Shown here in pieces: positions 201-16,164 of a DNA stretch of 49,272 nucleotides. Each line of letters opens with the position of its first letter. Within the stretch, counting starts at the first letter, position 1. The notes below the pieces were generated by a model, which ran no database searches, was not told where the DNA came from, and saw nothing but the letters and a program-made list of their open reading frames with translations. The translations under genes were made by a program, and so were the position numbers. Source of the DNA: Clostridioides phage phiCD508; sequence record OR295560.1. One strand, written 5' to 3'.

Positions 201-719
201 ATGGATAAAAAAATAGACATAGCGAAGTTTATAGTAAATAGAATTGATTACTATATTGAAAAATCAGATAATAAAGCTAGTTTTTTACTATTATTAAATA
301 GCGCAATTATAGGTTTTTTATTTTCAGGGAAGGAAAAAATAATGAATCACTTAAGTATAAGTAATATCAGATGTTTAGAGATGCTATTTTACATTGTTAT
401 ATTATGTATATTTGTTATTTCAATTTATTTTTCGATTATGGTTTTAAAGCCAAGGAATTCTAAAATAGAAAATGAATATAAATCTATTTTTTATTATAAA
501 GAGATAGCATCTTTAAATAATGAACAGTACAAAGAAGCATTTGAAAATGCATTTAAAGACGAAGAAAACTTGATTAATGATGCACTTGTTCAAATAAAAG
601 AATTATCTTTAATCTGTGATAAGAAAATGTATAATGTAAAAAAGTCAGTAGAAGCTTTTATTTTAGGTGGTATTATATTGTTTATATATATACTTGTAGT
701 AGTTTTTAATGCTATTTAG
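201..719 (+). CDS. Small membrane protein with 3 predicted TM segments (possible SLATT/DUF4231-like pore-forming effector); convergent with the cyclase-Nudix gene
   Basis: 172 aa. Hydrophobic segments are ASFLLLLNSAIIGFLF, MLFYIVILCIFVISIYFSIMVL and a C-terminal AFILGGIILFIYILVVVFNAI. There is an amphipathic N-terminus and a helical middle. RBS is gaggtagtaaaatcATG. Confidence 0.5.
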   Translation: MDKKIDIAKFIVNRIDYYIEKSDNKASFLLLLNSAIIGFLFSGKEKIMNHLSISNIRCLEMLFYIVILCIFVISIYFSIMVLKPRNSKIENEYKSIFYYKEIASLNNEQYKEAFENAFKDEENLINDALVQIKELSLICDKKMYNVKKSVEAFILGGIILFIYILVVVFNAI

Positions 720-782: not shown

Positions 783-2369
783 TTACATATTTGTAGATTC
801 TTGTAATTGATTTTCATTTAATTTTTTAAATGCTAGTTTTAAAGTTTCTTTAAAATCAGGTACTGTGTTTTCATTAAAATCTTCAAGTTCATCCTCTCCT
901 ATCCATGCAAGTTCATTATGTTTTGATGTGGGTTCAAATTTAGAAATATCATAATCATTTATTATTTCTGCGAGAGTTATAATGCCTTTGTGTAAACCAT
1001 CACTTTTTTTAACTTGATAAATTGCTAGAGGTATAGGTTGGCAATCATCTTTTCTTGTGCAATCAGTAATAGGTTCAATGTTTATATTAAAATCTTTTTC
1101 ATATTCATCTTTAATAGTATTTATAATTGAAGTTTCTAGACTTGCCTTAGCACAACCAAATTCCCATTTACTCGCATTATTATTTCTATTATCACTTCTT
1201 TTCGCAATTAATATTTTTGAAGTTGATTTATTATAACAAACCGCAACACAGTGTAATTCCATTAAATCTACTTTTATATAGTCTTTATCTATTGTATTTT
1301 TATCATAACTGGGGTTTGTTTTAGAAATTACGTCACCTATTTTTTCAATCTTATCACTAAGGTTTCTGTCTATAAGTATTTTATCCAAAGCCTTGTCTAC
1401 AGAATTAAACATAAAAGAATCAATTAGTAATTTACTTTCTCCTTTTTTATTAAAAAAATATTCTCGAACCAATTCATTTTCTTCTATTTCATCAAAAGAA
1501 AAACTATCATCAAATTCTATATCATTATTTTTTCCTTTATTATGATACCAAATGATAGGGTATAGTTTATCTTTCCAGATACCCTTTAATTTTTTATATG
1601 TAATTATATGTAATTTAGATAAAATATCAGTTTTTCTTGATAATATATAAGCTAGTTCAAAACTAAGAACAAGTCTTTCTGGGCATGTTTGCTTTGATAT
1701 TCTGAAACCAGCATCAATATCATTTCCTAAGAACTCAAATATTTTATAATTATTGGATAAATCGTACATAGCAGAAATATTTTCATATTGTTCATTATTT
1801 TCTAAAGCATTAAAATTAGGATTTCTTGATACTATAGCAATCCAGGCCGCTCCTTTTAATGAAATAATATTTTGAAGTTTCATTAAGTATTTTTCAGATT
1901 CAGAAAATCCTTCTAGTGTAGAGAATATATTACCACTTTTTATATCTTTAGCAGTGCTTGTTAAAATATCAAAGATTATATCTATGTATTTATAAATTTC
2001 ATCATAATTTTTTAGTACGATAATGAAAATTACCTCATCACCAAGAACTCTCCAAAGTTGTGCTTTAAGGTTTTCATAAACTCTATATTGTAACTTACGA
2101 ATTATATGTGATAATACCTTAGCCCATCCGCTATAATTTATATTTTTATATAATGATGAATTAGCTATATCAAAAGAAAAGAACAAAATCACTTCTGGAT
2201 GATTAGGTTCTTTTTCTTTTTCATAAATATCAGTATTAATATTTTCTTGAAGTTTTTCCTTATACTTTTTAAGATTAAAAGCGTTTTCGTTTTTAGCTGA
2301 ATTATGAACATTATTTACATTTTGAGTTTTATATTCTTTATCATCTACCATTGTAAATATCCTAACCAT
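783..2369 (-). CDS. Two-domain protein: N-terminal class III nucleotidyl cyclase-like (CHD/palm) domain fused to a C-terminal degenerate Nudix-like domain
   Basis: 528 aa. FSFDIANSS then 44 residues to LGDEVIF matches the spacing of the two metal-binding Asp motifs of class III cyclases. FLGNDIDAGFRISKQTCPERLVLSFELAYIL resembles the (V/I)NxAARxE--hhVSe region. The C-terminal KILIAKRSDN..SKWEFGCAKASLETSIINTIKDEYEKDFNI..ELAWIGEDEL resembles a Nudix fold, but REx2EE is replaced by KDEYEKD. It overlaps the upstream peptidase gene by 25 nt. Confidence 0.5.
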   Translation of the reverse strand: MVRIFTMVDDKEYKTQNVNNVHNSAKNENAFNLKKYKEKLQENINTDIYEKEKEPNHPEVILFFSFDIANSSLYKNINYSGWAKVLSHIIRKLQYRVYENLKAQLWRVLGDEVIFIIVLKNYDEIYKYIDIIFDILTSTAKDIKSGNIFSTLEGFSESEKYLMKLQNIISLKGAAWIAIVSRNPNFNALENNEQYENISAMYDLSNNYKIFEFLGNDIDAGFRISKQTCPERLVLSFELAYILSRKTDILSKLHIITYKKLKGIWKDKLYPIIWYHNKGKNNDIEFDDSFSFDEIEENELVREYFFNKKGESKLLIDSFMFNSVDKALDKILIDRNLSDKIEKIGDVISKTNPSYDKNTIDKDYIKVDLMELHCVAVCYNKSTSKILIAKRSDNRNNNASKWEFGCAKASLETSIINTIKDEYEKDFNINIEPITDCTRKDDCQPIPLAIYQVKKSDGLHKGIITLAEIINDYDISKFEPTSKHNELAWIGEDELEDFNENTVPDFKETLKLAFKKLNENQLQESTNM

Positions 2370-2866
2370 TTCCCTCTATTAGATGCTGCATAAGAGGAAA
2401 CATTAAAGTATTCTGCAATTTTTGAAGTGTCGACCTTATTACCTACTGTGTTTTCATCCATAATTCTTTTATATTCATGTTTAGGCATCAACAAGGCTGC
2501 TGCAAATTCATTGGATTGATACTCCTTATTGGTATTGCCACTTCTAAAATACTGATTTCCATCTTGACTATTCCATAGTTCATCATCAATGCCATAACCC
2601 ATGTGTAAAAATAAATGTCCAAGTTCATGAGCAATGGTAAAATTCTTTCTGGTATCTGGTTGATAAGGAGATACCACTATTTCAAATGAATCATCAACTT
2701 TTCTAATAAATCCATCAGAGTATCCACTTAAAGAACTATCTTCTATTACCTTGCCTCCTAAAGCATCAACAACTTGATTTATATTTACTATTGGAATTTG
2801 GATTTTGTATGTTTGGATAATATCTTGGGTTATATCATTAATTAGCTCTCTGATTTTGAAATCCAT
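2345..2866 (-). CDS. ImmA/IrrE-family (DUF955) zinc metallopeptidase
   Basis: 173 aa with the HEXXH motif IAHELGHLFLH and the family-typical NEFAAALLMP segment. An extended -10 (tgatataat) lies about 60 nt upstream on the minus strand. The gene is translationally coupled to the downstream gene. Confidence 0.75.
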   Translation of the reverse strand: MDFKIRELINDITQDIIQTYKIQIPIVNINQVVDALGGKVIEDSSLSGYSDGFIRKVDDSFEIVVSPYQPDTRKNFTIAHELGHLFLHMGYGIDDELWNSQDGNQYFRSGNTNKEYQSNEFAAALLMPKHEYKRIMDENTVGNKVDTSKIAEYFNVSSYAASNRGKWLGYLQW

Positions 2867-3756: not shown

Positions 3757-4015
3757 ATTTTTATTCCTTTCATTTTATATTTTCTATAATTAAGTTTAAC
3801 ATATTTAGTATATACCTATGTATATATATATTTAAAACAATGTTTTTTATTGCAATATAGAATATATTGTATAAATAAAAAATATGAAGAATAGATATTT
3901 GATAATTGTAAAATTATGTTATAATTAAAATGCAAGAATAATCTTGTGGAACTACAATCTAAGAGTGGAGCTTCATTTTCTACATTCCATCCCTTAAAAG
4001 GAAGGAGGTGGAGAA

Positions 4016-4156
4016 ATGAGCGAATTTTTACTAGGAGTGTTAGCTAGTTTAACAGCTAGCTTTATTACATATATTATTTCCAGAAAAGTAAAAAGCCACT
4101 CTGGCAGGAGTGACTTTGAGCTTGATGTAAAAATCAAGTTTAATAAAAAACGACAT
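4016..4156 (+). CDS. Small hydrophobic peptide, type I toxin-like (TM helix plus basic tail)
   Basis: 46 aa: MSEFLLGVLASLTASFITYIISRKVKSHSGRSDFELDVKIKFNKKRH. Strong RBS aaggaaggaggtggagaaATG. The ORF sits between about 30-bp inverted repeats (3947-3981 / 4168-4206), followed by a T-run. Confidence 0.4.
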
Positions 4157-4666
4157 TAATATTTAGTTAATGAAACTTCACTCTAGGCTAATAGATTGTA
4201 GTTTCTTTTTTTGTTTTTGATACGAATTTACATCTTTATTATATCGCATTTTGAGAAAAAATAAAACTATGAATATTAGAAATATATTTTATTTTATCTC
4301 TAAGTATATATATTATTAGCCACCTAAAAAACTTTCACAAAAACAAAAAGAGTATATGTTTTTGATAACTGGATGATATAACTTATAACTCATTTTACAA
4401 TTCTTAGTTCATATATATTTATGCCACTAAATTTCTCTAGTTTTGCCGATTTAGTTTTATTCTACAACTAAAATAATACAATAGAATTAGTTATTATTCA
4501 ACAGGATAGTTTGAAAGTTGAATAATTTTATAGAAATGAATAATATTTTACGCTTGAAAAAACAGACTAAATACGTAGAATATTTGGTAAAACTTACCTG
4601 TATTAATTGCAATTAGAAGGTTCTATTATTAATTTAAATTAAAATTAATTCAAGGAAGTGACATAA

Positions 4667-5056
4667 ATGGAACAACAAGATGTAATAGACAAACTACGTA
4701 GGGGCGAATTAATGCTAATGGAGTATTTGTGGAATAAAAAGTCTATTTTATCAAAAAAAGAAATAATAGAAGCAATGAAAAAGAGATATAAGTGGAGGAA
4801 AAGTACTACAGAAATTCTTTTAAAAAGATTGGTAAAGATGAAAACATTAAAAAAGAAGAGGATAGGTTTTCAGTTTAGCTATGAAGTATTAGTAACTAAA
4901 AAAGAATATTTAAATGCTAGAAAAGAAGAAAGAGATATAAGTAAATATGATAATTTTTTTGCACGAATATTCACAACTATACATAAAAGAGATAAGATGA
5001 CAGAAGAACAACTAAAGGCATTTATAAAAAATATGGAAAAAATTGGAAAAATATAA
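4667..5056 (+). CDS. BlaI/MecI/CopY-family (penicillinase-repressor type) winged-helix regulator
   Basis: 129 aa; SKKEIIEAMKKRYKWRKSTTEILLKRLVKMKTLKKKRIGFQFSYEVLVTKKEYL is a BlaI-like N-terminal DNA-binding domain. A perfect 12-bp palindrome TAATTGCAATTA lies about 60 bp upstream (4597-4608). Confidence 0.6.
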   Translation: MEQQDVIDKLRRGELMLMEYLWNKKSILSKKEIIEAMKKRYKWRKSTTEILLKRLVKMKTLKKKRIGFQFSYEVLVTKKEYLNARKEERDISKYDNFFARIFTTIHKRDKMTEEQLKAFIKNMEKIGKI

Positions 5057-5148
5057 TTTATATATATCAATTAATTTTAAATTAAATTTGTTATAATATT
5101 TATATATATTTTAATATGCAGAAATTTACAAAAAAGGGGGTGCATATT

Positions 5149-5529
5149 ATGGGATTTAAAAAATTACCTGATTCAGAATTAAAAGTAATGAAGTTTATCT
5201 GGGGATTAGAAAAAAAAGTAGCTTCAGGAGAAGTTGTAGAAGCTATGAAACAAACTTATGGTTGGAATAAAAATACAACACTAACAATATTGTCTAAGCT
5301 TGCAAAGAAAAACTATTTGTATTCTCAAAAAACAAGCAAGTGTACATATTATACTATCGCTGTAAGAGAAAAAGATTATTTAAAAGTTGAAACAAAAAAA
5401 TTCTTTAGTTTTTTTCATAATAATTCTTTAAAAAGTTTTTTCACTGCTTTAAATGATGAAGAAAATTTAAGTGATGATAAATTAGATATGTTAGAGGAAT
5501 GGGTGAAAAATTGGGAAGAAGATGAATAA
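5149..5529 (+). CDS. Second BlaI/MecI/CopY-family regulator (paralogue; ORF track starts at 5116, likely start is ATG 5149)
   Basis: MGFKKLPDSELKVMKFIWG...YGWNKNTTLTILSKLAKKNYLYSQKTSKCTYYTIAVREKDYL. RBS is aaaagggggtg before ATG 5149. Confidence 0.6.
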   Translation: MGFKKLPDSELKVMKFIWGLEKKVASGEVVEAMKQTYGWNKNTTLTILSKLAKKNYLYSQKTSKCTYYTIAVREKDYLKVETKKFFSFFHNNSLKSFFTALNDEENLSDDKLDMLEEWVKNWEEDE

Positions 5530-15614: not shown

Positions 15615-16064
15615 GTGAGTTTAATTAAGTACAGAGGTTATGATTTTGAGAACGAAAAGTGGATTTATTCAGCAACAATAATGTGGAGTAATATACTTGA
15701 ATGTTTAGTTATGTTGACAGAGGGTTGCAAATGGCAGAAAGTCTCTAATGTTGGGGTATGCTCTGGAGAATGGGCTAGAAACAATCAAGAAATTTGTGAA
15801 GGGGATATATTGAAAGGATATGATAATTCTAGTGATACAAGCCAATATGGAGTTGTAAAAAGAGATTTTAATAGTATTAAGTTATATTTGGAATGGCATT
15901 ATTTAAAGAAGTTTGAAGGAGAATGGATAGAGCTTATAAATAAAACAGAAATATATCATAGTAGAGATTACAAAGTAATTGGTAATGAATATGAGAATTT
16001 AGAGGAAGTCAGAACAGAGTTCTTAGAACGTAAGGAGAGTCTTGAAAATGAATATCTTAGCTAG
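15615..16064 (+). CDS. YopX-like phage protein
   Basis: N-terminal MSLIKYRGYDFENEKWIYS resembles the YopX family M.IKFRAWDK motif. Confidence 0.4.
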   Translation: MSLIKYRGYDFENEKWIYSATIMWSNILECLVMLTEGCKWQKVSNVGVCSGEWARNNQEICEGDILKGYDNSSDTSQYGVVKRDFNSIKLYLEWHYLKKFEGEWIELINKTEIYHSRDYKVIGNEYENLEEVRTEFLERKESLENEYLS

Positions 16065-16164
16065 TGCGATATTAGTAATAGGAAGTTTTATAACTGGTAG
16101 AGTTTATGAGTATAGATTGAATCTAAAAGAGTGTGAAAATTGCGACAATAAAAGAGGTGTATAA
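16048..16164 (+). CDS. Small TM peptide (38 aa)
   Basis: MNILASAILVIGSFITGRVYEYRLNLKECENCDNKRGV; RBS taaggagagt; shares LAS..SFIT with the 4016 peptide. Confidence 0.25.
   Translation: MNILASAILVIGSFITGRVYEYRLNLKECENCDNKRGV

Follow-up and report, generated by a model that had tools for sequence, protein, structure and literature searches.

The CD2889-RCd12 type I toxin-antitoxin module in Clostridioides phage phiCD508 and a predicted end-to-end fold of its toxin mRNA

The genome of Clostridioides phage phiCD508 (sequence record OR295560.1), analysed here as one strand of 49,272 nucleotides (nt) that we call the window, carries a small toxin gene and a convergent antisense RNA at positions 3920 to 4501. 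This locus is very probably the CD2889-RCd12 type I toxin-antitoxin (TA) module of Clostridioides difficile phiCD119-like phages and prophages, present here in a phiMMP02-like phage. The module is already known, down to identical sequence, and is not new. Functional data on the toxin family have been published (PMC7699646, PMC5961336, PMC6563280).

Peltier et al. 2020 described five type I TA pairs in the two prophages of strain 630, including CD0977.1-RCd11 and its duplicate CD2889-RCd12, with toxins of 47 amino acids (aa) (PMC7699646). Induction of the toxin leads to growth arrest and fewer viable counts, and the tagged toxin is found in the membrane fraction (PMC7699646). Growth is rescued when the antisense RNA is co-expressed from its own promoter, in cis or in trans (PMC7699646). 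CD0977.1 is neutralised by RCd12 and not by the more distant RCd10, and there is no cross-reaction of antitoxins between the prophage subfamily and the subfamily adjacent to clustered regularly interspaced short palindromic repeat (CRISPR) arrays (PMC7699646). Half-lives are about 89 min for the toxin mRNA and about 8 min for the short antitoxin (PMC7699646). The modules stabilise a plasmid, and deletion of the toxin genes makes phiCD630-1 easier to lose, this being the only prophage for which stabilisation has been shown (PMC7699646). Toxicity, rescue and half-lives were demonstrated for the CD0977.1-RCd11 pair (PMC7699646), which is 2 aa and 3-5 nt away from the window, and the RCd12 sequence is that of the window antitoxin. 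A 2026 preprint on small proteins controlled by riboswitches for cyclic di-GMP (c-di-GMP) mentions the module only in passing.

Identity with the strain 630 modules and distribution

Strain 630 has two copies of the module. Which of them does the window match? Compared base by base with the copy at about 3.337 Mb of 630Δerm (LN614756.1), the window is identical at 278 of 278 positions of the toxin mRNA, 150 of 150 of the short antitoxin and 94 of 94 of the region of the antitoxin promoter P2. Compared with the copy at about 1.147 Mb (CP016318.1), the P2 region is again identical (94/94) and the antitoxin has exactly three differences, at 4129, 4139 and 4152. The peptides follow the same division. 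Q183X5_CLOD6 (UniRef), a strain 630 protein encoded at about 3.337 Mb, is 100% identical to the window peptide, and the copy at about 1.147 Mb encodes another strain 630 protein, a variant ending ...KLNKKQH. Published descriptions give three mismatches near the 3' end between RCd11 and RCd12 (PMC7699646) and 95.7% identity between the CD0977.1 and CD2889 toxins (review, PMC6563280). The three antitoxin differences and the 95.7% toxin identity found here reproduce these figures, so that, by genome position and by the published description of the differences, the allele in the window is assigned as CD2889-RCd12.

The same sequence is widespread among phages of this species. About 20 C. difficile phage records, phiMMP02, phiC2, phiCDHM19, phiCD119 and phiCD27 among them, match positions 3850-4350 at 99-100% identity, and over positions 4240-4700 phiMMP02 alone is 100% identical. 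The phiMMP02 equivalent is gp38, labelled 'hypothetical protein', which is preceded by the lysis genes and followed by two BlaI-like regulators and the integrase; in many other phage records the gene is unannotated. The module sits in the accessory/lysogeny region of the phage. It occurs in many phage backgrounds, in plasmids and beside CRISPR arrays, and the assembly collection has the exact window peptide in 4,467 blocks.

The toxin gene and its product

The toxin gene, of the CD2889 allele, occupies 4016-4159 on the plus strand, stop codon included, and has an ATG start. It encodes a peptide of 47 aa, MSEFLLGVLASLTASFITYIISRKVKSHSGRSDFELDVKIKFNKKRH, with a hydrophobic N-terminus and a basic tail. 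The original prediction, made from the sequence without database searches, had quoted this peptide correctly but had counted 46 residues. It had also noted a strong ribosome-binding site (RBS) ahead of the open reading frame (ORF), and the Shine-Dalgarno (SD) sequence AGGAGG is present at 4003-4008 (plus strand), 7 nt before the ATG. The same feature has been described for the toxin family (PMC7699646).

The peptide matches the NCBIfam model NF047374, 'type I toxin-antitoxin system toxin' (equivalog CD_typeI_toxin), with 82.2 bits against a cutoff of 60 (E 2.5e-23), and it is assigned to PHROG 738 (E 2e-20). Pfam and PADLOC gave no match for the toxin. The gene had been read as a type I toxin akin to those of C. 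difficile prophages, and this reading is upheld by the NF047374 match and by the identity of peptide, mRNA and antisense RNA to the 630Δerm copy. A covariance search against known type I TA families had been suggested as a check. No Rfam family is found in the whole window at the gathering threshold, and at a relaxed threshold the window gives only chance-level matches and a weak c-di-GMP-I match.

The window was also scanned by rule for products of 30-56 aa with a hydrophobic N-terminal helix and a lysine-rich basic tail, preceded by AGGAGG 7-8 nt upstream. With a hydropathy of 1.98 over 15 residues and five K/R among its last 15, the toxin ORF is the sole ORF in the window that combines the RBS, the transmembrane (TM) segment and the basic tail.

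Transcripts, promoters and the antitoxin RNA

Published oligonucleotides (Supplementary Data 2 of Peltier et al. 2020, PMC7699646) were mapped onto the window. More than 20 primers, probes and transcript-end oligonucleotides map exactly, and the Northern probes for the two RNAs fit with at most one mismatch. From 3797 onward the region matches the CD0977.1 promoter-fragment primers OS652 and JP481, and a -10 box of the toxin promoter, TATAAT with TGT just before it, can be read at 3920-3925 (plus strand). The toxin mRNA is placed at 3933-4210 (plus strand, 278 nt), comprising an 83-nt leader, the coding sequence and a 3' untranslated region (UTR) of 51 nt. Its ends are those of the published in-vitro transcription primers: T7CD0977.1 maps at 3933, and 'CD0977.1 term' matches at 30 of 30 bases and ends at 4210. 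The transcript has been published as about 300 nt (PMC7699646). Its terminator (4172-4219, plus strand) consists of a hairpin at 4172-4205, of -10.3 kcal/mol, and a T-run, which had been reported to follow the downstream repeat and is found at 4206-4219.

The short antitoxin RNA, of the RCd12 allele, is placed on the minus strand at 4081-4230 (150 nt); T7RCd11short (33/33) defines the 5' end and 'RCd11 term' (24/24) the 3' end. The overlap with the toxin mRNA, 4081-4210, is fully complementary over its 130 nt and takes in 79 nt of coding sequence including the stop codon and the entire 3' UTR. The predicted fold of the short antitoxin consists of hairpins plus the terminator. This intrinsic terminator lies within the toxin coding sequence (4092-4117, minus strand), where the terminator scan gave 10 pairs, four of them G-C, followed by a U-run (-12.7 kcal/mol, z -2.8). 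The scan found it independently, and it had not been noticed in the earlier reading of the locus. A minus-strand terminator inside the ORF is, as a sequence feature, the signature to be expected where an antisense RNA stops inside the toxin codons.

Two promoter regions are placed upstream of the antitoxin. P2 (4231-4324, minus strand) has a -10 element TATAAT at 4243->4238; the reporter-fragment primers JP730/JP732 and JP492 are exact, and the P2 fragment primers match exactly across 4223-4324. The distal promoter P1, with the start of the long antitoxin transcript, is placed at 4464-4501 (minus strand), where there is a promoter-like match, TTGAAT-17-TATTAT, at 4501->4473. The primer T7RCd11long aligns at 4437-4464 with 2 mismatches in 28 (alignment score 24). 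For this phage the prediction is an antisense RNA that runs convergently to the toxin mRNA, overlaps its 3' end and has a promoter and a terminator of its own.

A decayed c-di-GMP riboswitch

Upstream of the antitoxin the window holds a decayed c-di-GMP-I riboswitch aptamer (4372-4457, minus strand). It scores 18 bits with Rfam RF01051 (E 0.96), for which the gathering score is 35. The same site scores 69-75 bits in both 630Δerm copies, phiCD119, phiCD505 and phiCD27. The aptamer differs from the 630 copies at 16 of 86 positions, mostly by G/C to A/T changes at conserved sites, and its flanks are identical. The identical decayed allele is present in phiC2 and phiMMP01.

In strain 630 the riboswitch-driven long antitoxin is dispensable for neutralisation (PMC7699646), and the decay of the aptamer therefore leaves the TA assignment unaffected. 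With the riboswitch decayed, the module in the window probably runs on P2 alone. The decayed-riboswitch allele with an intact TA core, as in phiMMP02, phiC2 and phiMMP01, is a ready-made natural control for the role of the riboswitch. Another arrangement is found in some C. difficile genomes (loci L002 3349-3525 and L005 3349-3525, minus strand), where a 233-nt insertion with a 58-aa ORF, MFKNKMDKCTHVLTAYISSSYDYC..., lies between an intact riboswitch and P2. In those alleles the riboswitch would first control the small protein gene.

Predicted folding of the toxin mRNA

Imperfect inverted repeats had been described on either side of the ORF, and complementary arms are indeed present at 3948-3985 and 4161-4205. 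The 5' side consists of two contiguous arms. Arm A, GGAACUACAAUCUA (3948-3961, plus strand), pairs with 4192-4205 and forms 14 bp in the minimum-energy fold. Arm B, AGAGUGGAGCUUCAU... (3962-3985, plus strand), is complementary to 4161-4184 at 79%. The repeat finder gave 12/12 complementarity between 3950-3961 and 4192-4203, with a bulge of 6-7 nt between the 3' parts. The 3' arm that partners arm A is also the 3' half of the toxin terminator hairpin. Pairing of the first 50 nt with the last 62 nt of the transcript, arm B included, gives a duplex with an energy of -38.0 kcal/mol (z = -6.4 relative to shuffles of the 5' segment). We refer to this predicted end-to-end pairing as the clamp.

Two local hairpins are predicted in the leader. 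A small 5'-terminal hairpin, CAAGA-AUAA-UCUUG (3933-3946, plus strand), is part of the minimum-energy folds; in other family members the equivalent 5' stretch (GCAAGAAG) pairs instead with the 3' end (CUUCUUGC). The second hairpin (3973-4019, plus strand) would sequester the RBS and the AUG by pairing an anti-SD sequence, CUACAUUCCAUCCC, with GGAAGGAGGUGGAG. The same hairpin appears whether the isolated leader or the whole transcript is folded, and GGAGG has a pairing probability of 0.95. The full 283-nt transcript folds with -87.4 kcal/mol (z = -6.8 against dinucleotide shuffles, with 0 of 200 shuffles as stable). The minimum-energy fold contains the 5' hairpin, the 14-bp helix 3948-3961/4192-4205 and the SD/AUG hairpin, and in it AGAGUG of arm B pairs with CACUCU of the coding sequence near 4098-4104.

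The suggestion that the 5' UTR folds back on the 3' UTR is thus favoured by the predicted fold, as it is by the family-wide conservation described below, and the clamp is to be taken as a prediction. Published observations bear on the same RNA. The CD0977.1 mRNA has been called 'tightly folded', with only a fraction of it binding antitoxin in vitro in gel shifts (PMC7699646), and the RBS of the mRNAs of this family has been stated to be sequestered, as 'data not shown' (PMC5961336). Pairing of the 5' and 3' ends is not explicitly described in the text of PMC7699646, PMC5961336 or PMC6563280, the figures of which lie outside a text search.

Conservation of the fold in the toxin family

Relatives were taken from phage records, from the two 630 copies and from viral and genome collections searched for the invariant 17-mer AAAGTAAAAAGCCACTC, giving about 25 distinct toxins and 38 distinct transcripts. 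In genome contigs the 17-mer scan returned mostly chance matches in unrelated phyla, and family ORFs were found only in C. difficile and in one Intestinibacter metagenome-assembled genome (MAG). All 19 divergent representatives tested, the one from the Intestinibacter MAG among them, have ends that can form 27-40 bp. Their clamp duplexes have predicted energies of -32 to -46 kcal/mol (z -5.5 to -10.5), and each full-length minimum-energy fold of the 19 homologues contains 14-40 long-range pairs.

RNAalifold, run on a MAFFT alignment of the 19 homologues, keeps helix A. Variation there is between C-G and U-G, which pair in RNA and not, in the latter case, in DNA. MAFFT put helix B in different registers in each subgroup and RNAalifold recovered helix A alone, so helix B was scored per sequence with RNAduplex. 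Its sequence and register vary between subgroups and the complementarity stays: the partners are GCAGUUUCC/GGAAACUAC in phiMMP01, GGUAGCUUCA/UGAAGCUAC in Intestinibacter and GGAGUUCA/UGAACUCC in most others. We regard this as good evidence, not proof, that the predicted clamp is a conserved feature at the RNA level.

The Intestinibacter sp. MAG (locus L031 2427-2691, minus strand) provides a family member from outside C. difficile. Its toxin has 40 aa, MENFLLNVLFGIVTTIICCTAKYIYKKVKSHSKIGNKSGL, and the leader and 3' UTR show the same complementarity (32 bp, -39.6 kcal/mol).

The only invariant peptide motif of the family is KVKSHS. It is encoded by AAAGTAAAAAGCCACTC (window 4085-4117), and the opposite strand of these codons is the 3' half and U-tract of the antitoxin terminator. 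Across 19 loci that diverge elsewhere, the 17-mer does not vary. Since its codons are also the antitoxin terminator, conservation of KVKSHS may reflect a constraint on RNA.

Alternative explanations

Several points weigh against our reading of the locus and its fold. For the phage studied, expression and toxicity are carried over from the 630 copies, and the riboswitch that precedes the long antitoxin in the published module (Cdi1_4/Cdi1_5) falls below the Rfam threshold in the window. The window's minimum-energy fold joins the ends by helix A (14 bp) only, arm B being paired with coding sequence. Across the family, most helix positions are conserved or change by wobble on one side, and few show double changes that truly compensate. 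Descent from a common ancestor could by itself account for much of the shared complementarity, and the 3' arm is independently constrained as terminator and antitoxin template. Might the repeats have no regulatory role of their own? The 3' arm would be there as terminator and antitoxin template, the 5' arm would be left over from an ancient inverted duplication, and control would lie only with the antisense RNA and the SD hairpin. The leader segment 3948-3985 does resemble, apart from a 6-nt gap, the antitoxin segment 4206->4165, and such a leftover would agree with helix positions that are mostly invariant or changed on one side and with an arm B unused for end pairing in the window. However, complementarity of 27-40 bp is found in every lineage despite sequence differences and indels in the arms, with z from -5.5 to -10.5, and published gel shifts indicate a tightly folded mRNA that resists the antitoxin. 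We consider it unlikely, while taking it seriously, that the repeats lack a regulatory role of their own.

The arms bracket the ORF, and with the module found in many phage backgrounds, in plasmids and beside CRISPR arrays they could be imagined to act in DNA, either as terminal inverted repeats at the ends of a small mobile cassette or as a site where recombination transfers the toxin gene from one phage to another. Both arms, however, lie within the mapped transcript, and the promoters of toxin and antitoxin are outside them, so that a cassette bounded by the arms would be non-functional. One helix position is U-G in 10 of 19 sequences and others vary between C-G and U-G, a pair that forms in RNA and not in DNA, and no target-site duplication or transposase is associated with the arms. 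A role in DNA is extremely improbable on these grounds. Loss of the aptamer, with its 16 substitutions in 86 positions and score of 18 bits, could also mark relaxed selection on the whole locus, in which case the module would be a decaying relic with a toxin that is unexpressed or non-toxic. Against this, the toxin mRNA, antitoxin and P2 differ at no base from a copy of the functional type, the exact peptide recurs in those 4,467 assembly blocks, and the long antitoxin is dispensable for neutralisation (PMC7699646). We judge decay of the whole module very unlikely, and an intact CD2889-RCd12 module with a folded toxin mRNA remains our preferred reading.

Mechanism and significance

The best-supported mechanism for the module is post-segregational growth arrest that favours retention of the prophage. 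Once the element is lost, the antitoxin would decay first and toxin would then be made. Until then the mRNA would be kept inert by the local hairpin that pairs the SD and the AUG, and also by the clamp, in which the first ~50 nt would pair with the 3' UTR and terminator. The clamp would shield both ends of the RNA and in this way contribute to its long half-life. The antitoxin may act mainly through degradation of the mRNA, of the RNase III type, or by a block of translation.

The 3' UTR is complementary to the leader as well as to the antitoxin. The leader would thus mimic the antitoxin in part and be expected to compete with it there, and such competition would explain why only a fraction of the mRNA binds antitoxin in gel shifts. 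From this we put forward a wider proposal for the whole family, tentatively and as a possibility that may well prove wrong. The leader (first 40-50 nt) would be a built-in antitoxin mimic that forms a clamp of 27-40 bp with the antitoxin-targeted 3' UTR and terminator, at once silencing translation, protecting both ends (and so explaining the 89-min half-life) and limiting access of the antitoxin; and KVKSHS would be conserved mainly as the antitoxin terminator. Neither the leader as mimic nor KVKSHS as terminator is stated in the text of the three family publications (PMC7699646, PMC5961336, PMC6563280), as far as their text apart from the figures goes.

The discovery value is small, since published work already covers the module, the antisense RNA, the toxicity and the role in prophage maintenance, and a curated NCBI model of the toxin exists. 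The case shows that a type I TA module can be recognised from raw sequence although the gene is a 'hypothetical protein' or unannotated in most phage records. What remains of value is the predicted family-wide end-to-end clamp as a testable regulatory element, with arms that coincide with the antitoxin target, together with the decayed-riboswitch allele.

Neighbouring genes and other loci

A second peptide, at 16048-16164, had been said to share the core LAS..SFIT with the toxin. The letters are there but the kinship is not: the peptide is without KVKSHS, belongs to PHROG 6827 and not 738, and is missed by the family hidden Markov model (HMM). The ORF (16042/16048-16164, plus strand) was ruled out as a toxin paralogue. 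It lies in a co-directional string, where it overlaps the gene before it at that gene's end and the next gene comes 3 nt later, and it is an ordinary small phage gene of PHROG 6827 without assigned function. No second copy of the toxin was found in the window by the family HMM and phmmer against all six-frame segments, nor by the rule-based scan. Short-variant toxins of 34-35 aa, as they occur in other phages, were likewise not detected in the window. One such variant is present in phiCDKH02 (locus L012 970-1074, plus strand), where a 34-aa toxin, MIGFLLSILAGVISAYIYDKIKNHPDANKGDLKK, follows the long toxin at a distance of about 350 nt.

Directly downstream of the module and before the integrase are two tandem repressor genes of BlaI/MecI type (Penicillinase_R), at 4667-5056 and 5116-5529 (plus strand), an order that is kept in the 630 prophages. 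Just upstream of the module lies a likely prophage-borne anti-phage cassette of three genes. The first (201-719, plus strand) encodes a PycTM-like effector with two TM segments (Pfam PF18967, 47 bits; PADLOC PycTM, 107 bits). The second (783-2369, minus strand) encodes a 528-aa protein of PHROG 6174 with a cyclase-like motif, FSFDI...GDEVIF, seen by eye, and a weakly NUDIX-like C-terminal part; it had no match in Pfam or in a PDB sequence search. The third (2345-2866, minus strand) encodes a CapP-like M78 peptidase (PADLOC capP, 87 bits).

Comparison with known systems

The fold-back structure had been likened to those of the hok and txpA mRNAs. The hok comparison is only partly apt. With hok/Sok of plasmid R1, which is controlled by fold-back inhibition (fbi-tac pairing), the module would share long-range 5'-3' pairing, and a compact mRNA that is by inference poorly accessible both to ribosomes and to the antisense RNA. 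Sok binds the hok 5' leader (mok region), and activation of hok needs 3' trimming. In the window, by contrast, it is the 3' end of the mRNA that the antisense RNA covers. Neither the protein nor the RNA family is related to those of hok/Sok, and the phage has a Gram-positive host. Neither Rfam nor Pfam gave a match to hok/Sok, and with its antisense RNA at the 3' end the module does not belong to that system.

The likeness to txpA fares better, as the overlap at the 3' end is that of txpA/RatA and bsrG/SR4 of Bacillus subtilis. These have in common with the module, by general knowledge and by the comparison made in PMC5961336, convergent genes in prophage-like elements, antisense overlap at the 3' end of the toxin mRNA and a structured RBS. 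They differ in that there is no sequence homology, an absence also stated in PMC7699646, and no Rfam family at threshold.

Closer still are the CRISPR-adjacent modules of C. difficile, CD2517.1-RCd8, CD2907.1-RCd9 and CD0956.2-RCd10 (Maikova et al. 2018, PMC5961336). Their toxins are of the same family, with the KVKSHS core, a hydrophobic N-terminus and a basic tail. They share the leader and 3' UTR motifs CTACAAT.TA.AGAGTGGAG and CACTCT...TAGATTGTAG and the antitoxin overlap at the 3' end, and sequestration of the RBS has been noted there. Unlike that of the window, these toxins have 50-53 aa and another N-terminal half (53-64% identity), and no riboswitch adjoins them.

The nearest systems are the two prophage modules of strain 630. 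The mRNA, short antitoxin and P2 of the window are identical to those of CD2889-RCd12 (phiCD630-2) and are 3-5 bases off those of CD0977.1-RCd11 (phiCD630-1). All have the same neighbours, a 62-aa ORF upstream and BlaI-like repressors downstream, the same convergent layout and RBS, and a 47-aa toxin. The module of phiCD508 differs from CD2889-RCd12 of phiCD630-2 in its decayed c-di-GMP-I aptamer, with 18 bits as opposed to 69, and in its carrier, which is a phiMMP02-like phage.

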